A DNA stretch of 64,000 nt from Candidatus Heimdallarchaeum aukensis (GCA_021513695.1 CP084166.1:64001-128000), one strand, 5' to 3'. Numbered from the stretch's first letter, positions 26,770 through 50,154 are shown. The notes: generated by a model not told the origin, from the sequence alone. Program-made: numbers and translations.

Positions 26770-26770
26770 T

Positions 26771-30786: not shown

Positions 30787-31404
30787 TTATCTGGCTTTTC
30801 TAATCATTCCCCATACTTGAACATTTGAATTAGGAATCTTTTCAGAAATAGCAACCTCGAAACCAAAATGCTCGTAGAGTGAAATGTTTTCCTCGTTTTC
30901 TGTTTCTAAATAACAAATCTCCTTTTGGGAATCAAAGAAATCTAATGCAGGTCTTAGCAACTTTGAAGCGAATCCTTTGTTCTGGTGCGGAGGATCTACA
31001 GCAATTGAATTTAAATACCAGTGTGGACTATCTATTGCTCTTTCATGTATTTCATCAATAAACTTTTGCATTTTCATTGGTTTTCTCCAATTCATAATAA
31101 AAGGGATGATATATCCTTTACTCTTTAATAAAGCCAAAATGTTGTCTTTCTCTTTTTTTGGAGGAGTTAGAACCATTAAACCTTCAATTTTTTTGGATGT
31201 AGCCACAATATAACCATAATTCATCGCGTAATTTAAGCTGACGTAAAACATGTAGTACATTTTTTTTCTTTTTTTAATGTTAGGAAATAGGTACTTAAAT
31301 AAAGGATCTTCAAAAAAAGCCCTTGTTAGAACGGTACAAGCTTTTTTAATATCTTTTTTTTTGACCGTGTATAGAGAGTCAAAAAATAATGAATTATTTT
31401 TCAT
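30787..31404 (-). CDS. GNAT-family N-acetyltransferase.
   Basis: It has the acetyl-CoA binding motif IAVDPPHQNKGFASKLLRPALD (Q/RxxGxG/A). Confidence 0.75.
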   Translation of the reverse strand: MKNNSLFFDSLYTVKKKDIKKACTVLTRAFFEDPLFKYLFPNIKKRKKMYYMFYVSLNYAMNYGYIVATSKKIEGLMVLTPPKKEKDNILALLKSKGYIIPFIMNWRKPMKMQKFIDEIHERAIDSPHWYLNSIAVDPPHQNKGFASKLLRPALDFFDSQKEICYLETENEENISLYEHFGFEVAISEKIPNSNVQVWGMIRKAR

Positions 31405-31488
31405 TAATTTAATTTCTCTTCTTAAAATAATAAACTGTTCCTTGAAATGAAATTATTTAAATCAAAAATAAAAAAAAGAAAAGTGTTA

Positions 31489-32976
31489 TTAGTTCAGATA
31501 GAAGTAAGCACCTGTGTTTCCGTCAAATTGTTGGGGTGTGTCTCCACCGCTGTAAGGATAAGCGTTGAGGGCATAGTTGAATATTGTTTCTAATGCTGTA
31601 GAAGAAGATCCTCCGTAGTAGTTAATCCAGGAGTATTCCAAGAAGTAATATGTCCATGCTCCATTTTGATGTGTAGAATCATCATATCCATAACCGTTTT
31701 CTGTACAAGTTGTTGTTAAGTAAACGTTGCTTTTATTGGGCATGTTCATTAAGTTATCTCCAAAACCGCCACTGAAACAATGATCCAAGAAAACGAATAT
31801 TTTCTCAGCTACTGCATCATCTAGTATTACAGCTAGTTCGGTATCATAAAGGCTACCATCTTCTCCGTTTTCTCCAGAGTTGCAGTCCCACATGCATAAG
31901 TAAGAGCTTCCAGAACCATCTCCAGAACCATGTCCTGAGCTTATGTAAGCAATAACATCATCTGCATCAGCGGTGCCAACTAGCCAGTTTAGAGCTTGTT
32001 TGACATTGTATTCTGTAGCTAAACCTGTGTAAATTGGGTAGTTACCAGAATTTGTGTCTCCATAAATTCTTATGTTAGAAGATGACCAACCTAATGTTCC
32101 AGTAAGGAAGTTATACCAATCTGTTGCATCTTCGTCACAGTAGGAGAGGTCACTAATTACTTCATAATCACTAATTCCAACGATAACAGCATAGTAATTG
32201 GTTACACCATCACCAGTACTTCCTCCACTACTATATTCCACTGTAACGGTTAGATCGTAAGCACCTGAACCACTGTATGAATGGACCATTATGTACCATC
32301 TTCCTTCTCCTGGATCATCATAGGTTACATCTTCTCCTCCGTAAGTATATCCTCTCCAATCGTAAGTACTAGTAGTTGGTTCGGCGCCCAGTCTTCCATA
32401 TAGATCATAATCGGATGAACCACAAGTTAAAACTGAACGCATGCTAATTGCATTAGCCGCAACATCAATGTACCACATTTCACTGTCTCCAGTGGCACTT
32501 AAGCTGCTTGTAACAGTTTGTCCATTACTTAGAGCTCCGCCAGTACTTCCTCCGCTACCACCTTCATATTCAATAAGGTCAATCTTGAAACCCCATTTTG
32601 TAACAGAGTAATCTGTAACTAGCCTGATTTTAATTGTGTCACCATTAGAAGCTGCAGTCCATCCTCCACTTGAATAGGTTCCTGTTAATCTGTGTAAAGT
32701 ATTTCCAGCATAGTCATAGACGTACAAATAATCATAATTTGTCTCTACTTCTATGTACGTAAAATGAACTTTTATACTGGTTGCACCAGGTTTAGTAATA
32801 GTCCAAGTGTAATCGAAGTTATTGCTGTAGGGATGACTACTCTCAAGAATATAAGTTTCTTGAGTTGCCCTTGCATTGTTATCCATTAATTGATTTTCTG
32901 CATTTGTCACTGTAGGTAAAACCATTACCAATAGTGACACAATTATTGCTCCAATAACTAATTTTTTATTTATCAT
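31489..32976 (-). CDS. Secreted clan-CD cysteine peptidase (legumain/caspase-like, C13/C14-type His-Cys dyad) with an N-terminal CUB-like domain and a PPC-like domain.
   Basis: The signal peptide is MINKKLVIGAIIVSLLVMVLPTVTNA. The CUB-like block is SSHPYSNNFDYTWTITKPGATSIKVHFTYIEVETNYDYLYVYDYAGN...GFKIDLIEY. A PPC-like beta-sandwich follows. The catalytic region has YAVIVGISDY, AYISSGHGSG (His) and FVFLDHCFSGGF (Cys, compare the legumain D-A-C-E-S-G motif). Confidence 0.5.
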   Translation of the reverse strand: MINKKLVIGAIIVSLLVMVLPTVTNAENQLMDNNARATQETYILESSHPYSNNFDYTWTITKPGATSIKVHFTYIEVETNYDYLYVYDYAGNTLHRLTGTYSSGGWTAASNGDTIKIRLVTDYSVTKWGFKIDLIEYEGGSGGSTGGALSNGQTVTSSLSATGDSEMWYIDVAANAISMRSVLTCGSSDYDLYGRLGAEPTTSTYDWRGYTYGGEDVTYDDPGEGRWYIMVHSYSGSGAYDLTVTVEYSSGGSTGDGVTNYYAVIVGISDYEVISDLSYCDEDATDWYNFLTGTLGWSSSNIRIYGDTNSGNYPIYTGLATEYNVKQALNWLVGTADADDVIAYISSGHGSGDGSGSSYLCMWDCNSGENGEDGSLYDTELAVILDDAVAEKIFVFLDHCFSGGFGDNLMNMPNKSNVYLTTTCTENGYGYDDSTHQNGAWTYYFLEYSWINYYGGSSSTALETIFNYALNAYPYSGGDTPQQFDGNTGAYFYLN

Positions 32977-33000
32977 TTTAATCCATTTTCTCGCTTTCTA

Positions 33001-33024
33001 ACTGTTGAGTTTTCACTCAGCAGT
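33001..33024. promoter_or_regulatory. 10-bp inverted repeat ACTGTTGAGT-tttc-ACTCAGCAGT, followed by two copies of the direct repeat TTTTTTCACAT(A/T)T(T/A)AA, in the divergent intergenic region.
   Basis: The palindrome lies 25 bp upstream of the start of the minus-strand peptidase gene. The direct repeats lie at about 33042-33062 and 33080-33098. Confidence 0.3.
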
Positions 33025-33218
33025 CAATGCATTTTTTTTCACATATTTAAACTTATTTTGGAATTAATTGCATTAATCTTTTTTCACATTAAATTTGCGT
33101 TTTATGGCTTGAAATGATGATTCAAGTATCGTTTTCTTTTGCATTACATAAAGGAAGTAACGAAAAATGTTTTTTAAGAAAAAAATATAAACAAGCTACA
33201 TTTGAGTGAAATAGAAAA

Positions 33219-34013
33219 ATGAAAATTAAAGATAAAGTTGTTTTGATAACAGGAGGAACAAAAGGAATAGGTAAAGTAACCGCTGACTTACTTTCTTCTA
33301 AAGGGATGAAGGTTTATGTAACAACTAGAAAAGAGGAAAATGTTAAAGATAATATCCTTTTATTAGATGTTACAAATGAGGAGTTAGTAAATCAATGTGT
33401 TAATGAGGTTATTAAAAGAGAAGGAAGAATTGATGTTCTAGTTAATAATGCTGCATATGGTTTATGTGGCCCTATTGTTGATTCTACAACAGAAGAAATT
33501 AAGGAATTATTTGATACTAATTTCTTTGGTCCTCATCGTATGATAGAAGCAGTTTATCCTATAATGAAAAAACAAGGATATGGTAAAATAATTAATGTTA
33601 GCTCCTATGCTGGGCGATTAGCAGTACCTTTTCAAGGTGTTTATAGTGCAGCTAAAGCTGCTTTATCCATCTATTCAGATTCTTTACGTATGGAAATTGT
33701 AAGCGATGGAATAGATGTTTGTACAATAGAACCAGGGGATACAAAAACTGACTTTCATTCAAGTAGAACATACACAAAAGGTTTTGAAAATAATGAGAAT
33801 GCAAAACGCGCAATAGAGAAAATGCACAGAGATGAACAATCTGGGTCGAATCCTAAAGCTGTTGCAAAGAAAATACTAAAGGCAATTAAATCTCGGAGAT
33901 CTAATCCTAGATATATTGTAGGGTTACAAGTAATATTAGTAACAGTAGTTAGGCATATTTTTCCTAGAAAATTCCAACAATTTCTACTTCGGAAATATTA
34001 TGGTTTGAAGTAA
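33219..34013 (+). CDS. Short-chain dehydrogenase/reductase (SDR).
   Basis: TGGTKGIGK is the Rossmann TGxxxGIG motif. NNAAYG is present, and YSAAKAAL is the YxxxK catalytic motif. Confidence 0.85.
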   Translation: MKIKDKVVLITGGTKGIGKVTADLLSSKGMKVYVTTRKEENVKDNILLLDVTNEELVNQCVNEVIKREGRIDVLVNNAAYGLCGPIVDSTTEEIKELFDTNFFGPHRMIEAVYPIMKKQGYGKIINVSSYAGRLAVPFQGVYSAAKAALSIYSDSLRMEIVSDGIDVCTIEPGDTKTDFHSSRTYTKGFENNENAKRAIEKMHRDEQSGSNPKAVAKKILKAIKSRRSNPRYIVGLQVILVTVVRHIFPRKFQQFLLRKYYGLK

Positions 34014-34028
34014 AAAAAAGAAAAGTAG

Positions 34029-35993
34029 TTAATTTCTTATTTTTATTTCTCTCTTAAACATTAAAGGTAATATTTGAGAAGTTTTCTCTTTTTCTTCTTC
34101 TGCTTTCTTAATTTGATGTTCATAGAGCATTTCTTCATCGTATTTTTTGTAATGCATATTAATGTTAGATTCAGTTATAGAGAAATGATTTTTCATTTTT
34201 GTTGCAAATACTTCTTTAATTTCCTTATTTTTATCTTTCATAATTGAAAGATTTGGGTTAAAGGGAATTAATCTATCATAGTCGTAAGTGGGTAATATAG
34301 CTTTACTGTTAGCCATGAATATAGTGTTGTTTGCAACATAGGTTGTAGTATTCTTCCATAGGGGTTCTCCTGTATTAGGATTAGGCTCGAATTTTGGGTA
34401 ATTAGAACTTGAAATATCCAGTCTTATTTTATGACCTGGAGTAAAAACATATGCAGTAGAATCTAATGTAATGTTTAATATGTATCTTTTTCCTGGTTCA
34501 AGAAGATCCCATGTTGAGTATGAATCTCTATTTCTAGCTCTAATGATTGTATCAGTAATAAGCATAGAAGTGTTGTCAGGGAAAACATCCGTTAGTTTTA
34601 CTGAAAAATCTGTATCTGTACAATTTGAAGATATCTCCAACATTACTTTAATTTGTCCTATAACAGTAATAGGTTCAGTAAGAGTTTCTGAAGTAAAAGT
34701 GAGTACGTCATCTCTTTTTTCTAATTCACTTTGATCATAAGTTCCTGCTTTTAGAGCAAGATTCCCTCCTCCTTCTGTAGGAACGGGGTTTAATGGGTTG
34801 TATAAATATGAAATAGCACTGTCTATATTTACTTCCTGTGCTAGACTTAAACTCATATTACTGTTGAAAAACAATGTTTTCTCTTCTGTTTCTAAAGGCC
34901 AATGATTAGAAGAATACCAATTATTACCAAGTTTATTATTGTTATAAGGGAGAGAACTCATGAGATAAAAAATAACATTAGGTAAATTGTCCCACCTAGT
35001 GCCATTATCCTTGAGCCACTTCTCGAAAACTATATCTCCTAACTCAACTAACATTCCTGCATTCTGGTTAGGATAAATATATGGTATCCCCTTATATTCT
35101 CCAGAAGGTAAAGCTCCAAAACCGCCAACATGAGTCCATGGCCCCATAATTAATTTTGAATTACCTGCTGCTCCTTCTCCTCCTTGTGTTTGATATCCTA
35201 CAAAGGCGTCAATAGTGTTCTGTGTGAATATATCATACCAACCACCTATATGCATAGCTGGAACATGTATGTCTTTGTAATTGTTAACTATTCTAACAGG
35301 ATCCCATCTATCGTCTAGTTTTTCCATATCTACAAAACTGTTTATTTCTTCAATTGTATAACCTTGAGCTACCATCCAAGGAACCATTAATTCTGATCTT
35401 AATACTCCACCTCTGAAAGCTGCTTCATAGACATCTGGTGTTCCTACAATTGGTACTTGACATTTTAATTCTTCTGAAGCATTAGGAGCTAGAAGATATT
35501 GGGCAATAGCTAAAGCTGACGGACCCCAAGTTCCAATTTTTCCATTACACCAAGGTTGAGCACTGATCCATTCTAAACTTCTTTTTCCATCAACACTCTC
35601 GGTAAAAAAGGGCATAGATTTTTCTCCTTCAGAAGCAAAGTAACCTCTAAAATCCTGAATTACAATTGCATAACCTTCTTCAGTATAAGTACTAAAGATT
35701 TCAAGTTCGTTCTTATTATATGGTGTTCTGATGAAAATTACTGGTAGTGAAGAATTAATGTTCTTTGGAATATATAAATCAGTAGCAAGCTTTACTCCAT
35801 CATCCATTTTTACAAAATATGTTATCTTGTAGCTATTTCCATGAATACTTGCGTTTAAGGGTATAGTCCAATTAAATTCTCTTGAAATCCTGTTATTATT
35901 TAGTAAAATAACCGTATAAATTCCAGTTAGCAATGAAAATCCTATGATACCTATTAATATGAAAGAATGGATATATTTTTTCATTTTTTTCAC
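34029..35993 (-). CDS. CocE/NonD-family hydrolase (X-Pro dipeptidyl-peptidase S15-like) with an N-terminal TM anchor.
   Basis: MDDGVKLATDLYIPKNINSSLPVIFIRTPYNKN matches the family N-terminal block DGv.L.adiy.P...pvPvil.rtPY.k. The nucleophile region is GTWGPSALA, followed by a C-terminal beta-sandwich. Confidence 0.7.
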   Translation of the reverse strand: MKKMKKYIHSFILIGIIGFSLLTGIYTVILLNNNRISREFNWTIPLNASIHGNSYKITYFVKMDDGVKLATDLYIPKNINSSLPVIFIRTPYNKNELEIFSTYTEEGYAIVIQDFRGYFASEGEKSMPFFTESVDGKRSLEWISAQPWCNGKIGTWGPSALAIAQYLLAPNASEELKCQVPIVGTPDVYEAAFRGGVLRSELMVPWMVAQGYTIEEINSFVDMEKLDDRWDPVRIVNNYKDIHVPAMHIGGWYDIFTQNTIDAFVGYQTQGGEGAAGNSKLIMGPWTHVGGFGALPSGEYKGIPYIYPNQNAGMLVELGDIVFEKWLKDNGTRWDNLPNVIFYLMSSLPYNNNKLGNNWYSSNHWPLETEEKTLFFNSNMSLSLAQEVNIDSAISYLYNPLNPVPTEGGGNLALKAGTYDQSELEKRDDVLTFTSETLTEPITVIGQIKVMLEISSNCTDTDFSVKLTDVFPDNTSMLITDTIIRARNRDSYSTWDLLEPGKRYILNITLDSTAYVFTPGHKIRLDISSSNYPKFEPNPNTGEPLWKNTTTYVANNTIFMANSKAILPTYDYDRLIPFNPNLSIMKDKNKEIKEVFATKMKNHFSITESNINMHYKKYDEEMLYEHQIKKAEEEKEKTSQILPLMFKREIKIRN

Positions 35994-36163
35994 GTGATCT
36001 TGATTATAGTAGATAATTAAATTTTAATCTTAATTAGTTTTGTTGTTTGAATTTGCAGTTTAATGAAAATCTAAGTTAATAACAGCATTTATAACTTTCC
36101 TTCTTCTTGCTAATTATCGGATTCTCAATTTTTCGTTACAAAAAAAATATAAATGTATGAAGT

Positions 36164-39100
36164 TTGCCAATTCTGATAAGGTTGAAATTAAGAAGTTCTT
36201 TTCTGATTATTATTGTACTTGTAGTTTTATCGTTTAATTCTTTAATTCTGGGTGAAAATGAATCAGAATATACTCTTCTATATACAGAGAATATAGATGA
36301 TGGAGGAATTATCGAAACTTTTCCTGTAATCGATATGAATCAAAACATCCATGTTTTTGTCCATTTGCGAACTTCAGTTGAGGATAAATTGATAGTTCTT
36401 TATAATGATGGTTCAAAGTTAATTCAATCCAATTTACTGGAAGACGTATCAGTAATAACATTTTATGATAGTTTCATTTATGATGATCAATTGTTTGTGA
36501 TTTTTAGCGCGGTAAATCCTTTAGGTACTATAAGTTTTTATGAATACTCTTGGTCTCCTTCTTCCAACAAGACTATTCCTATTGTTTCCATCGCTTCTAG
36601 TGTTTTACCATACATTAATTACTTCAAAGTTACAATCGATAATGGTACAACACATTTATTTTTCAACAAATTCTATGGTGATAAAAACGAATTTATGAAC
36701 ATCACTCATTATTACGGAAGATCTGGTTCATTCAAAAAAGAATATTTTTCCATTACAAATCCATATTACAGAGTAGGTTTAGATTTTGTCGTAAATAATG
36801 GTACAATATATTACTTTTATCAAAAATGGGAAGATGAATATAACAAAGGTGAATTTACAGGAGACTTTGGTTTTGGAATTTTAGATAATCAAACTTTTTA
36901 TCCTCAAGTAACTAAAATTTTCTCAAAGAAAATTGTTGGCAAAGTAGGAAAATTTGATGCAGAAAAAGGGATTAATGATAAAATATTCACATTCGCATTT
37001 TTTGAACAAAAGAAGATGTATTATGGATGGTTCAATGGTACTCATGTTTTAAATATGACTCAAAATCTATTAACACAAGATAACTATTATGATTTCTCTC
37101 TTAATACTGAAAATGATACAGAACAAATGTTCTTAATCACTAGACCAGAAGGTTTCGATTATGTTTCTGTTTTCAGAGGGACCTATAACAATCTAACACT
37201 TCTCTGGGAATTTCAACCAATAACAACTTTAGAGAAGATTTCTCCATATGGTTATTCATTCACACTCTTCGATTCTAGCTACTTACTACTTTATAATTCA
37301 ACAGTAAGTACAAAAGAAATCCCACATCCAATAGGTTTACAATATAAGAATGAAACTGCAGTTTCTTTGATATTAGTAACTAATCTCCCAATTTCTCCAA
37401 TAGAACCAATTATAGACAATGGTTTACAATTGTATAATCCTATTACTTACTTCATTAAGAATAACATTCCAATAGTAATTGCACTATCTGTGCTACTATT
37501 AATTGTTATTGCTCTTCTTACAGTATTGTGGATAAGAAAAGCAAAAACCATTAAAGCCTTCCTTTATGACACTTCAGAGGTTGGAGAACATAAAAAGTTC
37601 ATATTATTTTTCTTGAATTTAAACAGATACATATCTAACTTCTTTAGTACAGTAAAAACAATTGGTTTTTCGAATAAAAAGCGAACGTTAATTACTCTTG
37701 CAGGTTTTATAATCACAGGATATCTCCTTGCTTCTGCTATCATTATTTCTCAAAGTGAGCAATCCTCCTTAGTTAAGTCTTACTACAATGCAAATAATAT
37801 TATTTCAGATGGAAAAGCAAGTGTAAGTCTAATAACAAATATAGTTAGAATCAATGAAGGTTCAGCTACAATTGCTAAAAATTATGATGCTCTTGCTAAA
37901 TCACAAATTAGTTCAATACTTAGCGATCTCACACTTTCCAAATATATAACTTCTATAGAATCAGTTTATTATAGTTTTGTCCGTGCTCAACATCCTACTG
38001 TAGATTTTAACAAAGAAGTTAAGATATCTGCTTTTCCTGATGATTCTGAACCTTACCTTTCTTCTGTTATAACAGAAGGTCGTGCTCCACAAGCTGATAA
38101 TGAAATTTTAATCCAAGGATCACTCTTTAGAGATTTTGATTTAACTCTTAATGACAATATTACTATAGTTCTTTCTCAAAAAGCTGTTTTATCTAATGAA
38201 ATTCAGGATTATCAAGTGAATCTTACAATAGTAGGAATCTTTGAACAAGTAACAACTTCAGAACTTTATAAAACTAGTCTATTTCTTGGTGAATCAAATG
38301 ACATTTTTGGTTTGCTCGAAACTTCTCAAATAGTCTTATACAATACCAACTTCTTTGAACTTCTTTCAAACAGTAATAAAATAAACATGCAACTTAGAGG
38401 AATCTATCAGTTTAATTTAGACTTTTCAAACTTCAGGATTGAAGAACGTACATTAATATCAAAAGAATATGAAAGACTTGTAGGACTTACTTATTCATTT
38501 AGTCATGATAGTGCTTCTGCAGTAGCATTCACACAGGAGATAATAGAGTTCTTTGAGAACTTCAATAGCTACTACTTGAATAACATGACTCGTTTGTTTA
38601 TCTTTGCATTTCCAGCAATTCTACTGTCAATCTTTATGATCTTTGAATCTTCAGAACTCTTTTCTTCAAGTTATCAGCAAGAAGTTTCTGTACTTAAAAA
38701 TAGAGGTATTAGAAGAAGAAGGATGGTCTCGATTTATATTTGGATCAGACTATTTGAAGTTATATTGGCTACAATTATAAGTTACGGAATTGCCATTCTT
38801 ACTTCGATTCCTTTAATTAGAGTAAATGGTTTCCTAACTTTCAATAATAGAGATACAGAACTAAGAATAGGAAATCTTCCTGTTGAAATGCTTTTAACTG
38901 CTCTAATTCTATTTACTATTTCGATTCCAAGAATTCTTTTGATTGTAAGAAGAGAAAGAAGGATTGAAAAAACACCTAGTAAACTTTCAAAACTATTCAA
39001 AAGAATCAGCTGGAGAGAAGTAAGTTTTCTACTTATAGGTATGCTGATTTTTGGAGTATTCTACTATTTGACCTTTGTAGCATATATTGAAGCAAGTACG

Positions 39101-40462
39101 AAAAACTTTCCACTATTCCTTAACTTAACAATTATAGGGGCATTGTTTACTCTAATAGGAGCTTTACCACTTTTGATGAAACTTCTATCTATTGTTTGGA
39201 AAGGAATAGGAACAGTAATTTGGAATTCAGAAAAGAAAAACAAGTTCAGGTTCGTATTTGCTGAGATATCTAAAGATATAAGATATTTCGAAAATATTAC
39301 TCTAATATTCTTGTTACTTATTGGTATTATCATTCCTTCTATAATTGTTCCATTTTCCAAAGAGAGAACGCTTACTAATCAAGCTTATTTCATGAACGGA
39401 TCAGAGTTAATGGTTCCAAATTGGCACAAATATTCAAACGGAATAACATTAGAAAATATCAGTGCAATTGAAGGAGTAGAATCAGCTTCTTATGTAAGAC
39501 TATATACGATGTACAGTGACTATAATTTAGGATATCATGGAACAAAAATAATGGTCATAAACACAACGAGTTTTATGGAAACCGTCCGGCAACCTCCTAC
39601 AACAGTTACAAAGTTCAATTGGCAACAGTTGGGTTCTCTTACTAAAGATACTGTTATAATTAGTAGAACTTTATCTGAAAAGTATAAAAAAGAAGTAGGA
39701 GATGAGATTTTTCTTATTCATCCTGATGCAACTTTTGATCCAAGATATGACAAATTTGTTCATAAATACAATCATACTATGACAGTAATATCAACATTTG
39801 ATCTCTTCCCGATTTTCTTCCTAGAAAAAGATAAACAAGAAGAAGAGCTAATGATGATTGTAACAGCTGAATGCTTTGACACGATATTGAAAAACGTAGT
39901 TACTAGACGATTACTCACTTCTTCGGCATTGTTGATTAAACCAACTAGTAAAGATGATATAGATCAAGTTGCTCAACAAGTATTTGATATTTCAGGAGGA
40001 GCTTATGTTCAAAGTTTCAGTAGTTTGAAGGATAACCTCAAAACTCCTCTCTATAATATTTTTGTTATTGAAATGATTCTTTCATTGTTCATTGCTGTTG
40101 TAGTTTTAATATTTTCAAGCTTTACCACAGCAACAAAGATATTAGAAAAGAGAGTAATCAAGCACGATATAATGAAGAAAATGGGAATAAATGTTACGAC
40201 AATAATCAACCTATCAGCTATAGAAAGTTTTATAGCTGCAATAATACCTTCCATGCTTCTGGGTTCGTTATTTGGATTTTTAGTGATAAATCCGATGTTG
40301 GGCCTTCTAAGTTATGGAGCAGAACCTTATCCTCTTACCATGCAGTATCCATTAATTCCGTTATTACTGAGTTTCTTGGCTTTACCTGTTATACTGTATA
40401 TTAGTTTGACATTTAATTTGCGTAGAGAATTTGCCAATTATTCTCCTACACAATTGGAGTGA
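36164..40462 (+). CDS. Giant (1432 aa) MacB/FtsX-type ABC transporter permease. It has an N-terminal ~430-aa extracytoplasmic domain and two FtsX 4-TM modules, each with a large extracytoplasmic domain.
   Basis: The signal/TM segment is LIIIVLVVLSFNSLILG. TM clusters lie around aa 435-455, 515-535, 800-900, 950-1010 and 1340-1420, with soluble domains of about 250-300 aa between them. It sits upstream of an ABC ATPase. The start is TTG (36164); an ATG at 36158 is in another frame and terminates after 26 codons. Confidence 0.7.
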   Translation: MPILIRLKLRSSFLIIIVLVVLSFNSLILGENESEYTLLYTENIDDGGIIETFPVIDMNQNIHVFVHLRTSVEDKLIVLYNDGSKLIQSNLLEDVSVITFYDSFIYDDQLFVIFSAVNPLGTISFYEYSWSPSSNKTIPIVSIASSVLPYINYFKVTIDNGTTHLFFNKFYGDKNEFMNITHYYGRSGSFKKEYFSITNPYYRVGLDFVVNNGTIYYFYQKWEDEYNKGEFTGDFGFGILDNQTFYPQVTKIFSKKIVGKVGKFDAEKGINDKIFTFAFFEQKKMYYGWFNGTHVLNMTQNLLTQDNYYDFSLNTENDTEQMFLITRPEGFDYVSVFRGTYNNLTLLWEFQPITTLEKISPYGYSFTLFDSSYLLLYNSTVSTKEIPHPIGLQYKNETAVSLILVTNLPISPIEPIIDNGLQLYNPITYFIKNNIPIVIALSVLLLIVIALLTVLWIRKAKTIKAFLYDTSEVGEHKKFILFFLNLNRYISNFFSTVKTIGFSNKKRTLITLAGFIITGYLLASAIIISQSEQSSLVKSYYNANNIISDGKASVSLITNIVRINEGSATIAKNYDALAKSQISSILSDLTLSKYITSIESVYYSFVRAQHPTVDFNKEVKISAFPDDSEPYLSSVITEGRAPQADNEILIQGSLFRDFDLTLNDNITIVLSQKAVLSNEIQDYQVNLTIVGIFEQVTTSELYKTSLFLGESNDIFGLLETSQIVLYNTNFFELLSNSNKINMQLRGIYQFNLDFSNFRIEERTLISKEYERLVGLTYSFSHDSASAVAFTQEIIEFFENFNSYYLNNMTRLFIFAFPAILLSIFMIFESSELFSSSYQQEVSVLKNRGIRRRRMVSIYIWIRLFEVILATIISYGIAILTSIPLIRVNGFLTFNNRDTELRIGNLPVEMLLTALILFTISIPRILLIVRRERRIEKTPSKLSKLFKRISWREVSFLLIGMLIFGVFYYLTFVAYIEASTKNFPLFLNLTIIGALFTLIGALPLLMKLLSIVWKGIGTVIWNSEKKNKFRFVFAEISKDIRYFENITLIFLLLIGIIIPSIIVPFSKERTLTNQAYFMNGSELMVPNWHKYSNGITLENISAIEGVESASYVRLYTMYSDYNLGYHGTKIMVINTTSFMETVRQPPTTVTKFNWQQLGSLTKDTVIISRTLSEKYKKEVGDEIFLIHPDATFDPRYDKFVHKYNHTMTVISTFDLFPIFFLEKDKQEEELMMIVTAECFDTILKNVVTRRLLTSSALLIKPTSKDDIDQVAQQVFDISGGAYVQSFSSLKDNLKTPLYNIFVIEMILSLFIAVVVLIFSSFTTATKILEKRVIKHDIMKKMGINVTTIINLSAIESFIAAIIPSMLLGSLFGFLVINPMLGLLSYGAEPYPLTMQYPLIPLLLSFLALPVILYISLTFNLRREFANYSPTQLE

Positions 40463-41340
40463 TGTAAATGAGTGGAATATATGTTAAAGATTTAATAAAA
40501 GTGTATCATGACCCAGAAACAGATGTAAGGGTCTCTGCTTTACGTGGGTTAGATCTATTTGTAAAAGAAGGGGAAGTTGCTTCAATAATAGGTCCATCGG
40601 GTGCAGGAAAAAGTACACTAATCAAAATTCTATGTGGTTTAGAAACAGCTTCTGGAGGATCAGTTTATATAGGTGATACAAATATAATTGAACTTTCAGA
40701 AAAGGAGATGCAAACGTTTAGATTCAAAAATATTGGTATAATAAACCAATTTGTTGCCCAGAATTTATTACCTAATTTAACTGTAGAGCAGAACATCCTT
40801 TTACCACTAAAAATGAGATATGCTAGTAAACAAAGAGCAAGAAAAGAACTAGAGGAATTGTTATCTGCTTTAAATATAGAAAGGATACGTTATAATCCTG
40901 TAACCAAAATCTCAGGAGGAGAAGCAGTAAGAACAAGCATTGGAGTTACACTAGCTAAAAAACCTAAAATCATACTCGCGGACGAACCTACAGGACAATT
41001 GGACACTGCTAACACAAACAATATTATTGAAACTTTTAAAGAACTGAATGAAGCTTTCAACACTACTATTCTAGTTGTGACACATGACTTGAGGTTTAGA
41101 AACGCTTTCAATAAAAGCTATATTATTCGTGATGGGAGACTAGTTGGTGTAAATGTTGAAATGGACCGTTCTGAACTTGATTTTCTTATTAAACCTCAAG
41201 AGTCTTCTCTCCAATCTGTAATTGACAGCAGCCAATTCGTAAGATTACCTGATGAAGTATACCAAACTGGAGAATTCAAGCATATTGTTGAATTTGATAT
41301 TCATCCTTCAAAGAAATTTTCAATTTTATTCAATCCTAAC
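37531..41340 (+). repeat. Copy A of a perfect 3810-bp tandem direct duplication.
   Basis: 37531-41340 is identical to 41341-45150. The embedded six-frame ORFs are identical in both copies (e.g. 38782..39000 = 42592..42810, and 39064..39360 = 42874..43170). The length is 3 x 1270, so the duplication is in-frame. Confidence 0.9.
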
Positions 41341-41364
41341 GATAAGAAAAGCAAAAACCATTAA
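40468..41364 (+). pseudogene. Duplication-generated truncated ABC ATPase copy. It contains NBD1 only and gains a chimeric 7-aa tail after the junction.
   Basis: The first 291 codons are identical to the 44278 ATPase. After the junction at 41341 the frame reads DKKSKNH and stops. Confidence 0.5.
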
Positions 41365-44272
41365 AGCCTTCCTTTATGACACTTCAGAGGTTGGAGAACA
41401 TAAAAAGTTCATATTATTTTTCTTGAATTTAAACAGATACATATCTAACTTCTTTAGTACAGTAAAAACAATTGGTTTTTCGAATAAAAAGCGAACGTTA
41501 ATTACTCTTGCAGGTTTTATAATCACAGGATATCTCCTTGCTTCTGCTATCATTATTTCTCAAAGTGAGCAATCCTCCTTAGTTAAGTCTTACTACAATG
41601 CAAATAATATTATTTCAGATGGAAAAGCAAGTGTAAGTCTAATAACAAATATAGTTAGAATCAATGAAGGTTCAGCTACAATTGCTAAAAATTATGATGC
41701 TCTTGCTAAATCACAAATTAGTTCAATACTTAGCGATCTCACACTTTCCAAATATATAACTTCTATAGAATCAGTTTATTATAGTTTTGTCCGTGCTCAA
41801 CATCCTACTGTAGATTTTAACAAAGAAGTTAAGATATCTGCTTTTCCTGATGATTCTGAACCTTACCTTTCTTCTGTTATAACAGAAGGTCGTGCTCCAC
41901 AAGCTGATAATGAAATTTTAATCCAAGGATCACTCTTTAGAGATTTTGATTTAACTCTTAATGACAATATTACTATAGTTCTTTCTCAAAAAGCTGTTTT
42001 ATCTAATGAAATTCAGGATTATCAAGTGAATCTTACAATAGTAGGAATCTTTGAACAAGTAACAACTTCAGAACTTTATAAAACTAGTCTATTTCTTGGT
42101 GAATCAAATGACATTTTTGGTTTGCTCGAAACTTCTCAAATAGTCTTATACAATACCAACTTCTTTGAACTTCTTTCAAACAGTAATAAAATAAACATGC
42201 AACTTAGAGGAATCTATCAGTTTAATTTAGACTTTTCAAACTTCAGGATTGAAGAACGTACATTAATATCAAAAGAATATGAAAGACTTGTAGGACTTAC
42301 TTATTCATTTAGTCATGATAGTGCTTCTGCAGTAGCATTCACACAGGAGATAATAGAGTTCTTTGAGAACTTCAATAGCTACTACTTGAATAACATGACT
42401 CGTTTGTTTATCTTTGCATTTCCAGCAATTCTACTGTCAATCTTTATGATCTTTGAATCTTCAGAACTCTTTTCTTCAAGTTATCAGCAAGAAGTTTCTG
42501 TACTTAAAAATAGAGGTATTAGAAGAAGAAGGATGGTCTCGATTTATATTTGGATCAGACTATTTGAAGTTATATTGGCTACAATTATAAGTTACGGAAT
42601 TGCCATTCTTACTTCGATTCCTTTAATTAGAGTAAATGGTTTCCTAACTTTCAATAATAGAGATACAGAACTAAGAATAGGAAATCTTCCTGTTGAAATG
42701 CTTTTAACTGCTCTAATTCTATTTACTATTTCGATTCCAAGAATTCTTTTGATTGTAAGAAGAGAAAGAAGGATTGAAAAAACACCTAGTAAACTTTCAA
42801 AACTATTCAAAAGAATCAGCTGGAGAGAAGTAAGTTTTCTACTTATAGGTATGCTGATTTTTGGAGTATTCTACTATTTGACCTTTGTAGCATATATTGA
42901 AGCAAGTACGAAAAACTTTCCACTATTCCTTAACTTAACAATTATAGGGGCATTGTTTACTCTAATAGGAGCTTTACCACTTTTGATGAAACTTCTATCT
43001 ATTGTTTGGAAAGGAATAGGAACAGTAATTTGGAATTCAGAAAAGAAAAACAAGTTCAGGTTCGTATTTGCTGAGATATCTAAAGATATAAGATATTTCG
43101 AAAATATTACTCTAATATTCTTGTTACTTATTGGTATTATCATTCCTTCTATAATTGTTCCATTTTCCAAAGAGAGAACGCTTACTAATCAAGCTTATTT
43201 CATGAACGGATCAGAGTTAATGGTTCCAAATTGGCACAAATATTCAAACGGAATAACATTAGAAAATATCAGTGCAATTGAAGGAGTAGAATCAGCTTCT
43301 TATGTAAGACTATATACGATGTACAGTGACTATAATTTAGGATATCATGGAACAAAAATAATGGTCATAAACACAACGAGTTTTATGGAAACCGTCCGGC
43401 AACCTCCTACAACAGTTACAAAGTTCAATTGGCAACAGTTGGGTTCTCTTACTAAAGATACTGTTATAATTAGTAGAACTTTATCTGAAAAGTATAAAAA
43501 AGAAGTAGGAGATGAGATTTTTCTTATTCATCCTGATGCAACTTTTGATCCAAGATATGACAAATTTGTTCATAAATACAATCATACTATGACAGTAATA
43601 TCAACATTTGATCTCTTCCCGATTTTCTTCCTAGAAAAAGATAAACAAGAAGAAGAGCTAATGATGATTGTAACAGCTGAATGCTTTGACACGATATTGA
43701 AAAACGTAGTTACTAGACGATTACTCACTTCTTCGGCATTGTTGATTAAACCAACTAGTAAAGATGATATAGATCAAGTTGCTCAACAAGTATTTGATAT
43801 TTCAGGAGGAGCTTATGTTCAAAGTTTCAGTAGTTTGAAGGATAACCTCAAAACTCCTCTCTATAATATTTTTGTTATTGAAATGATTCTTTCATTGTTC
43901 ATTGCTGTTGTAGTTTTAATATTTTCAAGCTTTACCACAGCAACAAAGATATTAGAAAAGAGAGTAATCAAGCACGATATAATGAAGAAAATGGGAATAA
44001 ATGTTACGACAATAATCAACCTATCAGCTATAGAAAGTTTTATAGCTGCAATAATACCTTCCATGCTTCTGGGTTCGTTATTTGGATTTTTAGTGATAAA
44101 TCCGATGTTGGGCCTTCTAAGTTATGGAGCAGAACCTTATCCTCTTACCATGCAGTATCCATTAATTCCGTTATTACTGAGTTTCTTGGCTTTACCTGTT
44201 ATACTGTATATTAGTTTGACATTTAATTTGCGTAGAGAATTTGCCAATTATTCTCCTACACAATTGGAGTGA
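41341..44272 (+). pseudogene. 5'-truncated second copy of the FtsX permease (equivalent to residues ~457-1432). It has no start codon of its own.
   Basis: From the junction to the stop, the sequence is identical to the C-terminal 976 aa of the 36164 ORF. The track ORF at 41252 begins with an out-of-frame ATG inside the truncated ATPase copy. Confidence 0.5.
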
Positions 44273-45150
44273 TGTAAATGAGTGGAATATATGTTAAAGA
44301 TTTAATAAAAGTGTATCATGACCCAGAAACAGATGTAAGGGTCTCTGCTTTACGTGGGTTAGATCTATTTGTAAAAGAAGGGGAAGTTGCTTCAATAATA
44401 GGTCCATCGGGTGCAGGAAAAAGTACACTAATCAAAATTCTATGTGGTTTAGAAACAGCTTCTGGAGGATCAGTTTATATAGGTGATACAAATATAATTG
44501 AACTTTCAGAAAAGGAGATGCAAACGTTTAGATTCAAAAATATTGGTATAATAAACCAATTTGTTGCCCAGAATTTATTACCTAATTTAACTGTAGAGCA
44601 GAACATCCTTTTACCACTAAAAATGAGATATGCTAGTAAACAAAGAGCAAGAAAAGAACTAGAGGAATTGTTATCTGCTTTAAATATAGAAAGGATACGT
44701 TATAATCCTGTAACCAAAATCTCAGGAGGAGAAGCAGTAAGAACAAGCATTGGAGTTACACTAGCTAAAAAACCTAAAATCATACTCGCGGACGAACCTA
44801 CAGGACAATTGGACACTGCTAACACAAACAATATTATTGAAACTTTTAAAGAACTGAATGAAGCTTTCAACACTACTATTCTAGTTGTGACACATGACTT
44901 GAGGTTTAGAAACGCTTTCAATAAAAGCTATATTATTCGTGATGGGAGACTAGTTGGTGTAAATGTTGAAATGGACCGTTCTGAACTTGATTTTCTTATT
45001 AAACCTCAAGAGTCTTCTCTCCAATCTGTAATTGACAGCAGCCAATTCGTAAGATTACCTGATGAAGTATACCAAACTGGAGAATTCAAGCATATTGTTG
45101 AATTTGATATTCATCCTTCAAAGAAATTTTCAATTTTATTCAATCCTAAC
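41341..45150 (+). repeat. Copy B of the 3810-bp tandem direct duplication.
   Basis: The junction is caatcctaac|gataagaaaagc at 41340/41341. The right end is caatcctaac|aacgttacaaag at 45150/45151. Confidence 0.9.
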
Positions 45151-46065
45151 AACGTTACAAAGAAAGAAATTTACGAAATTTTACCTAAAACACATGAATA
45201 CTCTGATATTGAAGAAAAGATTGAAGCAGAAGCAGAAGATCACAAAGTTTCATTTGACGAAGTAAGACCCATAATGGAGCAAGAATTTCTAGCAGATTTA
45301 TCTGACAGAAATATTATTGAAGTAAAAAACCTTGTAAAATCTTTTCCATTAGGCAAACGTACCCATGAAGTTCTAAAAGGAATAAGTTTCAACATTCGAA
45401 AAGGTGATTTTGTAGTTATTGCTGGAAAAAGTGGAGCAGGAAAAACTACTCTTATGAATGTTGTTTCTGGAGTCGAAAAACCCACTTCAGGTGAAATTAT
45501 CATCGATGGCATAAACATCACAGAAGAAAGCGGTTCAACAATATCAAACATGCGTTTCAAGGATATTGCCATGATTAGTCAAGTCAACAATCTATTCAGT
45601 CAATATACAGTAAAAGAAAATATGGAGATTCCCGAGATTTTCAACGGAATTAAAGACTTTTATTCACACATTGACTTTCAAGAGATAGCAGAAGAATGTA
45701 AAATTGATCATAGACTAAACCAGTATCCTCCAGAACTTTCAGCAGGAGAAAAACAACGTGCTGCGCTAGCTGTAGCTCTCTCTAGACATACCCCAATAAT
45801 CTTTGCAGATGAACCTACAGCCAATTTAGATTCAAGGTTAGCGAGAAATATTATCTCAATGCTCATGGAGACTGCAAGAGTTTACAACACCACAATTGTA
45901 ATGAGTACTCACGATTTGTCTCTAGTAAGACCTGGATTCAGATTAATAAGATTGCAAGATGGAAAAATAATTGAAGATGTAAGAGTTACAAAGAACAAGC
46001 TTAAAGGAATTTTGGAAGACTATTTAGATATTAAAATAGAAGAAAACGGTTCAGTTAGCTATTAA
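44278..46065 (+). CDS. ABC transporter ATP-binding protein with two nucleotide-binding domains (595 aa), the partner of the FtsX/MacB-type permease.
   Basis: NBD1 has Walker A GPSGAGKST, signature ISGGEAVRTS and Walker B IILADEPTGQLD. NBD2 has Walker A GKSGAGKTT, signature LSAGEKQRAALAVAL and Walker B IIFADEPTANLD. Confidence 0.85.
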   Translation: MSGIYVKDLIKVYHDPETDVRVSALRGLDLFVKEGEVASIIGPSGAGKSTLIKILCGLETASGGSVYIGDTNIIELSEKEMQTFRFKNIGIINQFVAQNLLPNLTVEQNILLPLKMRYASKQRARKELEELLSALNIERIRYNPVTKISGGEAVRTSIGVTLAKKPKIILADEPTGQLDTANTNNIIETFKELNEAFNTTILVVTHDLRFRNAFNKSYIIRDGRLVGVNVEMDRSELDFLIKPQESSLQSVIDSSQFVRLPDEVYQTGEFKHIVEFDIHPSKKFSILFNPNNVTKKEIYEILPKTHEYSDIEEKIEAEAEDHKVSFDEVRPIMEQEFLADLSDRNIIEVKNLVKSFPLGKRTHEVLKGISFNIRKGDFVVIAGKSGAGKTTLMNVVSGVEKPTSGEIIIDGINITEESGSTISNMRFKDIAMISQVNNLFSQYTVKENMEIPEIFNGIKDFYSHIDFQEIAEECKIDHRLNQYPPELSAGEKQRAALAVALSRHTPIIFADEPTANLDSRLARNIISMLMETARVYNTTIVMSTHDLSLVRPGFRLIRLQDGKIIEDVRVTKNKLKGILEDYLDIKIEENGSVSY

Positions 46066-46268
46066 TTTTCTTTCTTTTTTTTACAATTGATAACTTTAAC
46101 TTTTTTACCTAATTTTAGTTTGCTAGTTAAAATTAGTGACAGTTATTACTGCATCCATAATTAAAGCTAGAGTGATTTTTTTACTATTTCAGAGGTTTAA
46201 CTTAAAAACACGATGATTTTTTTTTCTGTTTGAGAAAGTTTTTTATTGAAATAAAAAAAATAACTCAC

Positions 46269-47012
46269 ATGGTAACTTTTCAAATTGAAAACAGTAAACT
46301 GAAAAACATTGAACTAGTCTGTATTGACAAAGATGGAACTGTCCTAACTTACGATATGTATTTTCCTGTGATGAAAAAACGTGCAGAAGAATTAGTAAAA
46401 AGGTATAATTTACCAAATGAAACAAAGAAAGATATACTAGAAATCATGGGTCTAGATTCGAATGAGCAAATTATAATGGGTGGGAGAATTCATATGCCTC
46501 GTTTGGAGAACATAAGAGCTACGATTGATTTTTTAAGAAAAAATTCAGTTAATGCAAGTTTTAAAGAGATTTCTGACCTCTTTAATGAAATTGATGAAAT
46601 TGTAGATTTATCAAAACATACTAAAGTATATCCTGGAATTGAAATGTTTCTTAAGACATTAAAAGAAAAGAATGTAAAAATTGTTATGACTACATTTGAT
46701 AGTACAGATGCAGCAAAAAGGCATCTTAAAAATAGTAAATTACTAGAATACTTTGATCTTGTTCTTGGAATAGATGAAGATTCTCCATATAATCCTAAAC
46801 CTGCTCCTGATATGCTGCAATACTCTTGTAAACTTCTAGAAGTAGACCCTCATAGGAGTGTTGTTATTGGAGATGACAATAACGATATGTTATTGGCAAA
46901 AAACGCTGGTGCATTAGCTGCTATTGGTGTTTTAACTGGAAGATCTAAAAGAGAGGATTTGAAAAACGCTGATTTTATCATAGATTCTATAAATGATATT
47001 AAAATAAAATAG
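46269..47012 (+). CDS. HAD-superfamily hydrolase (phosphatase-like).
   Basis: Motif I is VCIDKDGTVL (DxDGT). The motif IV region is VIGDDNNDM. The track start at 46230 is TTG; the ATG at 46269 places motif I about 20 aa from the N-terminus. Confidence 0.7.
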   Translation: MVTFQIENSKLKNIELVCIDKDGTVLTYDMYFPVMKKRAEELVKRYNLPNETKKDILEIMGLDSNEQIIMGGRIHMPRLENIRATIDFLRKNSVNASFKEISDLFNEIDEIVDLSKHTKVYPGIEMFLKTLKEKNVKIVMTTFDSTDAAKRHLKNSKLLEYFDLVLGIDEDSPYNPKPAPDMLQYSCKLLEVDPHRSVVIGDDNNDMLLAKNAGALAAIGVLTGRSKREDLKNADFIIDSINDIKIK

Positions 47013-47035
47013 AAATAAGAAATTAAGTGATTTTT

Positions 47036-48223
47036 ATGGGAAAGGCTAAAGTAGCAATAGTAAGAATTGAAAATGGAGACTTTTTTTCTGCAGTACAAAA
47101 AGCTATAGAACTAGCTGGAGGGCTTCCGGAAAAAATTGAGAAAGATATCTTAATTAAACCAAATATTCTCACTTTCAAAAAAACAGAAGAAGAGACTTCA
47201 CCTATAATTACTAATCCTGAAGTCGTTAAATCTATAATTAAAATAGTAAAAGAAAAAGACTACAACAAAAAAATTTATGTTGCAGATTCATCGGGTAGCG
47301 GTCTTGATACATCAAAAGTAATCGAGAAAACCGGTTTTACAAAATTAGAAGAAGAAGGAGTTACAGTATGCCAAATATCTTTGAATGGTTCGACTGAAAT
47401 AGAGCCAAAAAATCCTTTAAAACTTAAAAGAACTACTTTTTCTAATCTGTCTTTAAATTCTGCAATTATCAACGTTCCAAAAATGAAAACTCACACTTTA
47501 ACAAGAGTGACATTAGCGATAAAGAATCTTTTTGGAACTATTCCTGGGATGGAGAAATCTAGAATACACGCTGTAGGTAATACTGCTAAAGGATTTAGTA
47601 AGTGTTTAGTTGACATTTATTCTGTATTAAAAGATAATATCGTGATGAATGTAATGGATGCTTCTATAGCTATGGAAGGGCATGGGCCTTCTCACGGTTC
47701 TCCTGTTAAAATGGATCTTATCTTGGCAAGTAAAGATGCAGTTGCTTTAGATGCAGTAGCAACAAGTATAATGAGTGAGAAACCTTCTCGCGTTTTTACC
47801 ACTAGAATTGCTAGCGAAAATAATCTTGGTGTAGGAAATTTAAATGATATTGAAATAGTTGGTGAAAAGATAGAAAACATTCGACGCAAATTTAAAATGC
47901 CAGAAAAGTTTATCTCTTTCCTTCCGATAGGTATATTCTTTGAACTAGCTAAAAAACAACCTAAATACAAAGGTTCTGGATGTATAGCTTGTTTACGATG
48001 TCAAAAAATCTGTCCTGTACAAGCTATTGTAGTTGATAAAAAAGAAAAAAGACCTTATTTCGATTATAAGAAATGTATCTCATGCTTCAGCTGCAATGAA
48101 ATCTGTCCAGAAGGAGTAATTACGATTACTAGGCGTAAATATGGAAAACACATACTTTTCGGAGGTTTACTTAGTTCATTAATCATTGCTCTAATTGTTA
48201 TATTATCAATACTTCTCACTTAA
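47036..48223 (+). CDS. DUF362-domain protein with two C-terminal 4Fe-4S ferredoxin-type clusters and a C-terminal TM helix.
   Basis: CIACLRCQKICP and CISCFSCNEICP are CxxCxxCxxxCP motifs. The C-terminus HILFGGLLSSLIIALIVILSILL is hydrophobic. The track start at 47027 is GTG; the ATG is at 47036. Confidence 0.6.
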   Translation: MGKAKVAIVRIENGDFFSAVQKAIELAGGLPEKIEKDILIKPNILTFKKTEEETSPIITNPEVVKSIIKIVKEKDYNKKIYVADSSGSGLDTSKVIEKTGFTKLEEEGVTVCQISLNGSTEIEPKNPLKLKRTTFSNLSLNSAIINVPKMKTHTLTRVTLAIKNLFGTIPGMEKSRIHAVGNTAKGFSKCLVDIYSVLKDNIVMNVMDASIAMEGHGPSHGSPVKMDLILASKDAVALDAVATSIMSEKPSRVFTTRIASENNLGVGNLNDIEIVGEKIENIRRKFKMPEKFISFLPIGIFFELAKKQPKYKGSGCIACLRCQKICPVQAIVVDKKEKRPYFDYKKCISCFSCNEICPEGVITITRRKYGKHILFGGLLSSLIIALIVILSILLT

Positions 48224-48321
48224 CTCTTTTTTATTCAACTTTTTTCTATTTTTTTGATTGTCAATAAGCATACTTTTAAAATAAAGTTCTTCCCATTGTT
48301 TCTCTAGCGACGGTAGATAAT

Positions 48322-50154
48322 ATGTCGGAAGTCTTTGACAAAATTCTCTTATTATTAGATGAAATTTTTGAGATTGTAACAAATAAACGTTGGGCACATT
48401 ATTCTAAAAAAAGAACAGAAATATTATTATCACAAAAGATTTATGAACTAAAACATATCCTTTCCGAGATTCCTATTGACTTTAACATTAATAGCAAGGC
48501 TTCTTCTGAATATTTTGAAAAAATATTAAGTAAAATAACTGAAATTATGAATAATATGACTCCAGCAGATCTTCTATTTTCGTGGTATGAAATTGAAATT
48601 TTTAGATTAAACTTTGCAACCATTTATGCAAATATGTGGGGTCAGGCGGGAGACTTAAGTATAGCTGGGACAGCTAATGCACTAGCAAATGCTTTACTAG
48701 GAATACAAACCTTAGATGTTGATGATCTTTACGTTCCTTGGGGACACCACCAATTTCATAAAAGACGTGTAATTATTTTAAACTATCTCGATTCAGCTAT
48801 GAGTTTTTTCTTTACGCTTGTAAATACACTAGATATTGTCTACAAACATGATATAGAACATTGGTTGACAGAAGCTTTAAGGGCATGTGAGCAATATTTA
48901 TACTACTCTGATTTATTTTGGGATGTTCCTAAAAACGTTGCTTTAGAAAAGAAAAGAAGATTGGATACTTCCAAACCAAATTACTCTATGTATTACGCAT
49001 TATTTTTCGGAATAGATGAAATAATAAACAATTTTCTGATGAGTCAAAAGTTCTTTTTTGATAGTGAAATAAATGTGGAAAATGAAACTTTTGCAGTCAA
49101 AACTCCTGAAGATTTTTGGAAAACAGTCTACAAGATTATTGATAAGTTAGATTTTTACATTTCGGATTTGAAGGAGCATGTCGAGAAAAAAACATTTGGT
49201 TATAACGAATCTCCTCTTGAGGATGAAACAGTATTAGAATCTCTTTACCAAATCGATCTTACAAAAGTATATGTCAAAGGTTTTTATTCACTTTTTAAAT
49301 ACTTTAAAGAGAGCGCTGCTAATATTCTAAAATCTCTTAGAGATACTGTATTCATTAATTTCTTTAATTTTCTTCATAGATATGAAGAAATGATGAGCCA
49401 ACCTGACTTTATTAGTAGTCAAATGGCAGACGGTATATCTTTTCTGTTAGAAGAATTGTTACCTTGGAGCGGGTTAATAGCACTAAAATTAGATGATTAT
49501 TCTCTATTAGAAGAAGTAGAAAAAAAATTTGCTTATGTTTTTTCAAAAAAAGGAAAAGATCGATACCCTACTATGAATGGTTTAAGGATACTAGTAAGGC
49601 TTACACTTGATATTTCAAAAGATAAAACTGATAGATTTAAAGAATATGCAAAAGACTTAATTTATATCTCGAAAAAAGCTTCTTTTGAACCACGAAACTC
49701 TTTTGCTTTTGCATTGTTAGGTTATTTGTTAAGCTTAATAATAAAAACAATTTCCATTAAACAATTTAAACAGACAATTTCTGAAGTTTTTGAAAATATG
49801 TACGCTTCGTTTGGTCACCAATTGTCTGATGAAATTGAAATATATCTTCACAACTTGTTTTTGGCTCTCGATAATGAAAAACCCTCTTACAATATGAGTA
49901 GGTTATTAGCTCCAAAATATTATGATCCTTACACTTATTTTGTCCCAGATTTGAATAAAATTGCGAAAGATATTGAGAAAGATATAATCTATCTTCCATT
50001 TAATCTACAAAGCGATTCTATTATTCATGCTGAGCATTCAATGATAGAAGAACCTGAAACTTATTTAAAAAGAACGGAGCTAACAGAGTCACAAGGTAAA
50101 GAACAAGGAACAGAGATGTTGGCAGAACCTAAACTAGAAAAAGAAGAGGAATAG
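48322..50154 (+). CDS. Hypothetical alpha-helical protein (610 aa) with no recognisable motifs.
   Basis: It is a long ORF with an ATG start, coding-like composition and an acidic C-terminal tail. Confidence 0.5.
   Translation: MSEVFDKILLLLDEIFEIVTNKRWAHYSKKRTEILLSQKIYELKHILSEIPIDFNINSKASSEYFEKILSKITEIMNNMTPADLLFSWYEIEIFRLNFATIYANMWGQAGDLSIAGTANALANALLGIQTLDVDDLYVPWGHHQFHKRRVIILNYLDSAMSFFFTLVNTLDIVYKHDIEHWLTEALRACEQYLYYSDLFWDVPKNVALEKKRRLDTSKPNYSMYYALFFGIDEIINNFLMSQKFFFDSEINVENETFAVKTPEDFWKTVYKIIDKLDFYISDLKEHVEKKTFGYNESPLEDETVLESLYQIDLTKVYVKGFYSLFKYFKESAANILKSLRDTVFINFFNFLHRYEEMMSQPDFISSQMADGISFLLEELLPWSGLIALKLDDYSLLEEVEKKFAYVFSKKGKDRYPTMNGLRILVRLTLDISKDKTDRFKEYAKDLIYISKKASFEPRNSFAFALLGYLLSLIIKTISIKQFKQTISEVFENMYASFGHQLSDEIEIYLHNLFLALDNEKPSYNMSRLLAPKYYDPYTYFVPDLNKIAKDIEKDIIYLPFNLQSDSIIHAEHSMIEEPETYLKRTELTESQGKEQGTEMLAEPKLEKEEE

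Follow-up and report, generated by a model that had tools for sequence, protein, structure and literature searches.

A probable recent head-to-tail duplication within a two-gene ABC transporter operon of Candidatus Heimdallarchaeum aukensis

We have analysed a window of 64,000 nucleotides from the closed genome of the Asgard archaeon Candidatus Heimdallarchaeum aukensis (GCA_021513695.1, CP084166.1:64001–128000; positions are counted from the first letter of this stretch). A segment of 3810 bp lies in it twice, end to start, inside an operon for an ATP-binding cassette (ABC) transporter, which consists of a giant FtsX/MacB-like permease and an ATPase with two tandem nucleotide-binding domains (NBDs). 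In our judgement an internal segment of the two-gene operon has probably been duplicated head to tail, genuinely and very recently. The first-pass annotation of the sequence had offered two readings of the repeat: a segment duplicated very recently, or an artefact of the assembly. The first is favoured by the relatives, which are single-copy, and by the contig ends in three sequencing runs, which match the prediction for a duplicated unit; the second is contradicted by independent k = 31 assemblies that break exactly at both unit boundaries.

The two copies of the unit (Table 1) were compared again base by base and show 0 mismatches, and the perfect identity first claimed for them stands. The identity extends 0 bases past either end and the microhomology in register is 0 bp on both sides; the 20-nt contexts of the two breakpoints match at only 7 and 8 of 20 positions. 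Hidden or offset microhomology within ±30 nt of the breakpoints was not apparent either, the longest common word, of 6 nt, being no longer than random pairs of window positions give (P = 0.66). The boundary strings read as originally quoted, with gtattgtg before the unit, caatcctaac followed by gataagaaaagc at 41340/41341, and caatcctaac again at the right end. At the junction the left half of the right boundary is joined seamlessly to the right half of the left boundary, without filler and without microhomology. The copies are adjacent and in direct orientation and their end-to-start joint is new, as is characteristic of a tandem duplication. A homology-mediated duplication, whether RecA-dependent or arising by slippage, would have direct repeats or microhomology where the unit begins and ends, and none were found here; nor is the unit flanked by insertion sequences or rRNA repeats. 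Mediation by a mobile element was considered and rejected, there being no transposase or integrase genes adjoining the locus, no tRNA genes in the window and no inverted repeats. The 64-kb window contains no other long perfect repeat, the remaining repeats being diverged and intragenic, and this argues against an artefact running through the whole pipeline.

Further evidence comes from assemblies of the reads made independently of the reference. In Logan, each run of the Sequence Read Archive (SRA) is assembled separately at k = 31, k-mers seen once are dropped and the graph is cleaned in a SPAdes-like manner; each 31-mer is kept once, and only contigs above 150 nt are reported (PMC12424806). 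Both flanks of the window agree at every base with the Logan assemblies of SRR15988954, a run from the Candidatus Heimdallarchaeum aukensis study. In this run the left-flank contig ends at 37560, the unit forms a separate contig of 3810 nt and the right-flank contig starts at 45121, all with 0 mismatches. We simulated the k = 31 graph of the window and obtained unitigs at 1–37560, 37531–41340, 41311–41370 (60 nt) and 45121–64000; when one copy was removed, the simulated graph gave a single unbroken unitig. Two further runs show one of these ends each. A contig of SRR15988958 (L023, window 37531–40572) starts at exactly 37531 and one of SRR15988959 starts at exactly 45121, and their other ends fall inside homopolymers (GGGG at 40570–40573 and T8 at 46075–46082).

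Because the observed contig ends are those simulated for the duplicated and not for the single-copy sequence, the unit must have two upstream and two downstream contexts; that is, in the reads of three runs the unit start has two predecessors and the unit end two successors. The additional contexts are not noise from single reads, since Logan drops singleton k-mers and cleans the graph. It had been proposed that the duplication stands or falls with reads crossing the internal junction, and this check, made here indirectly through the contig ends, favours the junction in all three runs. A deletion variant was also considered and rejected, as reasoning from the graph structure places its break at 37530 and not at the observed 37560. 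As to the second context, the sequence of the window itself and parsimony point to the unit-to-unit junction. In SRR15988958 the unit is error-free over 3 kb, and of five flanking genes (152–610 aa) none was found intact in that run. This is a hint, not a measurement, of an excess of the unit over its flanks in this run.

Comparison with related genomes, which the first-pass annotation had recommended, gives a consistent picture. A search with the permease, restricted to one genome per species, recovered 19 loci, all in Heimdall-group Asgard archaea. The closest relative is Candidatus Heimdallarchaeum endolithica PR6, a complete genome, whose permease is 88% identical at the protein level and whose ATPase orthologue is 96% identical. 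The Candidatus Heimdallarchaeum aukensis genome was closed in the same study and has an average nucleotide identity of 88% to PR6 (PMC8813620). Aligned as DNA (about 86% identity), PR6 and the window are colinear, with one copy of the unit in PR6: window 26162–41339 aligns with positions 1–15176 of the PR6 sequence (L001), and window 41341–54254 with positions 11368–24280. One full-length permease is present at 19 of 19 loci, directly followed by one two-NBD ATPase at all 15 that extend far enough downstream. As PR6 and the other Heimdall loci are single-copy and colinear, a single permease–ATPase pair is ancestral and the duplication derived. The full identity of the copies, together with the single unit in PR6 (about 86% identical in nucleotides), also shows the duplication to be young, unless gene conversion homogenises the copies.

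The unit comprises the last 976 codons of the permease with its stop (37532–40462) and then the first 291 codons of the ATPase (40468–41340). In order, the locus reads full permease, an NBD1-only ATPase stub with a 7-aa tail, an N-terminally truncated permease and the full two-NBD ATPase (Table 1); codon arithmetic bears out the layout given in the first-pass annotation. The description of the duplication as in-frame is correct in that 3810 is divisible by 3; however, the permease and the ATPase use different frames and therefore no fusion protein is formed. The left breakpoint falls between W456 and I457 of the permease, immediately after the transmembrane (TM) helix 437–455, whose position is kept in all orthologues and which is followed by a basic patch. 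The right breakpoint falls between N291 and N292 of the ATPase, where the variable linker between the two NBDs begins. Among 16 orthologues of the ATPase, residues 231–290 are well conserved and conservation falls from residue 291 to about 345.

Table 1 Coordinates of the features of the duplicated transporter locus (ORF, open reading frame; aa, amino acids)
Feature	Position	Strand	Content or basis
Full-length permease gene, 1432 aa	36164–40462	+	ORF, hydropathy, orthologues in 19 Heimdall loci
TM helix, residues 437–455, just upstream of left breakpoint	37472–37528	+	Hydropathy peak 3.34
Duplicated unit, copy 1	37531–41340	+	Identical to 41341–45150; full length of Logan contig SRR15988954_23034
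Truncated ATPase ORF, 298 aa	40468–41364	+	One ABC_tran domain; 291 native residues and frame-shifted DKKSKNH
ORF of 1006 aa	41252–44272	+	30 novel N-terminal residues, then permease residues 457–1432 from 41342
Novel junction, 60 nt covered by junction-specific 31-mers	41311–41370		caatcctaac/gataagaaaagc at 41340/41341
Duplicated unit, copy 2	41341–45150	+	PR6 has a single equivalent, L001 11368–15176
Full-length ATPase gene, 595 aa	44278–46065	+	Two LolD/FtsE/MacB-type NBDs, about 4–228 and 346–568

The stub is made up of NBD1, the conserved segment of ~60 aa that follows it and the 7-residue tail, and the peptide ...SILFNPNDKKSKNH is diagnostic of the middle products. Upstream of the stub the native Shine-Dalgarno-like sequence, GGAGTGAT, is retained. 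The ORF of 1006 aa can start at an in-frame ATG that lies 30 codons before the junction, which gives the N-terminus MKYTKLENSS; its 30 novel residues are encoded within the ATPase stub, in a different frame. The second permease had been called start-less, and this holds in so far as no Shine-Dalgarno-like motif was found upstream of the ATG at 41252, although the ATG itself is in frame with the ORF. Lacking this motif, the truncated permease may go untranslated, and we consider its translation doubtful. The earlier suggestion that the stub products might interfere with assembly of the transporter is speculation. A scan for promoters and terminators returned 61 sites against 50.8 ± 5.3 expected, not clearly above chance, and was set aside, since it applies a bacterial consensus to an archaeal host.

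The following sequence of events would account for the locus. In the enrichment-culture population of Candidatus Heimdallarchaeum aukensis, the unit end, in the linker between the NBDs of the ATPase, would have been joined without homology to the unit start, just past the TM helix of the permease, by an illegitimate event between sister chromosomes, by end-joining or by switching of the template as the DNA was replicated. Between the outer genes, the locus now encodes an NBD1-only ATPase with a 7-residue foreign tail and an N-terminally truncated core permease that lacks an obvious start of translation. Because the outer full permease and full ATPase are intact, the transporter should still be made and the event should be tolerated. 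We infer that the duplication is at high frequency in the population. It may be that both breakpoints spare whole domains through purifying selection against toxic fragments, or by chance; this observation is post hoc and we give it little weight.

Several points weigh against a genuine duplication. The junction 31-mers themselves were not seen, the expected unitig of 60 nt being below the 150-nt reporting limit of Logan. Contig ends carry no depth, and the copy number may be 2 or more, in some or in all cells. All of the runs derive from one DNA extraction, and although contig quality and the homopolymer ends suggest that SRR15988958 and SRR15988959 are the two Nanopore runs, this identification falls short of proof. 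The genome paper makes no mention of the duplication (PMC8813620). Finally, in Salmonella every spontaneous duplication that was confirmed showed junction homology of 11 bp or more, and joints of 0 bp are typical of chimeras formed in vitro by ligation (PMC3411829).

Among the alternatives, the one that survives best, though still unlikely, is that a minority variant was promoted to the consensus, most cells being single-copy and a subpopulation carrying the duplication or a further amplification, with the assembler writing two copies on traversing the loop. A de Bruijn graph looks alike for a fixed and for a polymorphic duplication, and tandem duplications are unstable and often polymorphic in bacterial cultures (PMC3411829). 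Set against this, the branch outlasts singleton removal and graph cleaning at high coverage and is also present in the two runs with short contigs for this organism, which is not to be expected of a rare junction. Moreover, no recorded assembly runs unbroken across the boundaries or encodes the 595-aa ATPase intact.

A second possibility, to which we assign a low probability, accepts the duplication and sees in it modular gene birth under selection in the enrichment culture, whereby a homology-free join nested a cassette of a single-NBD ATPase and a core 10-TM permease within the parental operon. The order of a single-NBD ATPase followed by a core permease is that of bceAB and ybbAP. The locus resembles cases of gene fission and of new-gene formation by partial duplication at domain boundaries, in that both breakpoints leave whole domains. 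It differs from such cases in that the middle products are putative and the truncated permease has no recognisable start signal.

It is less probable still that the junction is a chimera made in vitro, during multiple displacement amplification (MDA) or library construction, and thus present in the reads and not in the cells. We retain this explanation mainly because a 0-bp joint, the signature of a ligation chimera (PMC3411829), is atypical when set against the bacterial data; in addition, the Nanopore libraries were made with MDA. Such chimeras are, however, individually rare, and the same base would have to be joined in three runs and library preparations, one of them an Illumina library not reported as amplified; the chimera would also have to survive the cleaning steps of two assemblers and polishing at 346x. 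The reference was assembled by metaSPAdes from Illumina PE150 (paired-end) reads, scaffolded by LRScaf with MDA-amplified Nanopore reads and polished by pilon at 346x, and the Illumina DNA was not reported as amplified (PMC8813620).

Similarly little probability attaches to the unit having a second, non-tandem context, such as a dispersed partial copy or an excised circle, that was misresolved as a tandem pair. What the Logan contig ends prove is no more than that the unit has two predecessors and two successors, and the junction unitig is not observable in Logan. On the other side, both ends of the unit lie within coding sequence that runs on without interruption in PR6, no mobile-element gene lies nearby, the genome is closed and circular and its seamless joint was polished with Illumina reads at 346x, and a tandem joint requires no extra sequence.

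The least probable explanation is a pure assembly or scaffolding artefact, in which SPAdes or LRScaf mis-expanded a repeat in a single-copy genome with no junction reads: short-read contigs scaffolded by MDA-amplified long reads can indeed have their repeats misplaced, and the copies are suspiciously perfect, yet single-copy reads give one unbroken k = 31 unitig where breaks are seen at 37560, 37531, 41340 and 45121. In form the locus resembles the collapsed or loop-resolved repeats of de Bruijn graph assemblies, the unit being a separate contig and the reference the minimal two-copy traversal of the loop. In contrast to this class of artefact, the loop is in the reads of three runs and was not made by a scaffolder, and only its copy number depends on the assembler. 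A repeat invented by the scaffolder is effectively excluded.

As to the kind of transporter affected, the ATPase scores 354.5 bits against TIGR02211 (LolD) and 310.6 bits against TIGR02673 (FtsE), both above the cut-offs, each score being the sum over two NBDs. Bacteriocin-export and MacB models are also among the top-scoring ones for the NBDs, YbbA is likewise among their best matches, and the best matches in the PDB include BceA, MJ0796, LolD and MacB. The NBDs thus belong to the LolD/FtsE/MacB group. The ~60-aa segment after NBD1 (residues 231–290; 44968–45147, and 41158–41337 in the stub) is as conserved as the NBDs among Heimdall orthologues, with identities of 0.57–0.85. It has no assigned domain and might serve in regulation or docking, as a module found in this fused ATPase and not elsewhere.

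Hydropathy of the permease indicates a signal anchor, an extracellular domain of ~400 aa, the TM helix 437–455, a short basic cytoplasmic stretch and then the core. The core has ~10 TM helices and two FtsX-like modules: a TM helix, a large extracellular domain and three TM helices occur twice, with two linking TM helices in addition. Against MacB_PCD (PF12704) the permease scores 25.7 bits (cut-off 27) over residues 1082–1273, a stretch that by hydropathy lies between TM helices, and against FtsX (PF02687) 19.6 bits, below the cut-off of 25.5. FtsX is matched at E ≤ 0.01 by 12 of 16 aligned core sequences, that of the window and 15 orthologues, the best at 2.3e-6. The permease matches YtrF in the PDB (E = 0.002), and a profile search of the PDB with it gave no match. 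One source labels the PR6 orthologue an ABC3 transporter permease. The name FtsX permease used in the first-pass annotation is thus reasonable in view of the FtsX, MacB_PCD and YtrF matches, although the curated thresholds are not reached. An AlphaFold2 model of the permease from a 4-sequence alignment had a mean predicted local distance difference test (pLDDT) score of 34.7 and was unusable. The start of the gene is ambiguous. Prodigal, run on the Logan contig, picks the TTG at 36164, and the PR6 orthologue in the NCBI annotation is 6 residues shorter (1426 aa), equivalent to the TTG at 36182, which gives a more typical signal peptide (MKLRSS...).

We read the transporter as a type VII (MacB/FtsX-like) system that is divergent and confined to the Heimdall group, with permease matches that stay below curated thresholds. 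The NBD scores, the TM pattern of the core and the weak permease matches are shared with YbbAP, BceAB, YtrEF and LolCDE, which have a 10-TM, double-FtsX permease. It differs from these systems in that two NBDs are fused in a chain of 595 aa with the conserved ~60-aa insert, in that the permease gene comes first, and in the extra N-terminal extracellular domain of ~400 aa with two extra TM helices. This N-terminal domain (residues 31–436, 36254–37471) has no Pfam match and is present in those Heimdall orthologues whose loci reach the N-terminus.

Searches of public collections were largely negative. An exact search of genome contigs for the junction gave no match, in a collection that lacks the source genome and in which the best permease is that of PR6 at 88%; in metagenome contigs of the Joint Genome Institute (JGI), neither the junction nor the native right boundary was found. 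None of the four products of the locus (both full-length proteins, the stub and the ORF of 1006 aa) was on record in exact look-ups, the partial products (stub and truncated permease) are absent from the cluster table, and a homology search with the permease returned three proteins, none at 100% identity. The protein database holds no identical or nearly identical permease or ATPase, while two small proteins flanking the locus are recorded on a contig of >1 Mb. Either the deposited record annotates the permease and ATPase otherwise than as proteins, for instance as pseudogenes, or the collection lacks them.

Elsewhere in the window, two very large ORFs abut on the plus strand at 2692–8913 (2073 aa) and 8913–16922 (2669 aa). 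The first contains bacterial thrombospondin type-3 calcium-binding repeats (PF18884), with families of DNA repeats at 6313–8129, and the second FG-GAP-like repeats; giant tandem genes in Asgard mobile elements are discussed in the genome paper (PMC8813620). On the same strand at 26771–29494, an ORF of 907 aa includes six diverged tandem repeats of ~245 nt (27779–29220, 61–78% identity). Its Pfam matches are Pilin_N and, faintly, CarboxypepD_reg/Ig-like domains, and it is probably a repetitive surface protein.

As a structural change, the duplication at the transporter locus is of an ordinary kind, not previously described for the Candidatus Heimdallarchaeum aukensis genome. It resembles the spontaneous short-junction tandem duplications of Salmonella and E. 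coli studied by Roth, Andersson, Hughes and others: a direct repeat of a few kb with identical copies and a novel join, absent from close relatives, and like these it is probably unstable as well as recent. Confirmed bacterial duplications differ in that their joins usually lie in microhomology or between flanking repeats, with 11 bp or more in the Salmonella survey (PMC3411829), and there is none here. This is a single archaeal example of homology-free tandem duplication, which would be of interest in itself only if depth showed it to be fixed or amplified, or if the middle products were expressed. We know of no comparable survey of duplications in Asgard archaea.

The case also illustrates that independent read graphs offer a check on repeats which appear too perfect in scaffolded short-read assemblies. 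Few Asgard genomes are closed, and those who use this one as a reference should read the locus as one transporter operon with a young internal duplication and not as four independent genes. Otherwise the stub ATPase and the truncated permease would inflate the gene counts and paralogue statistics on which arguments about duplication before eukaryogenesis draw.

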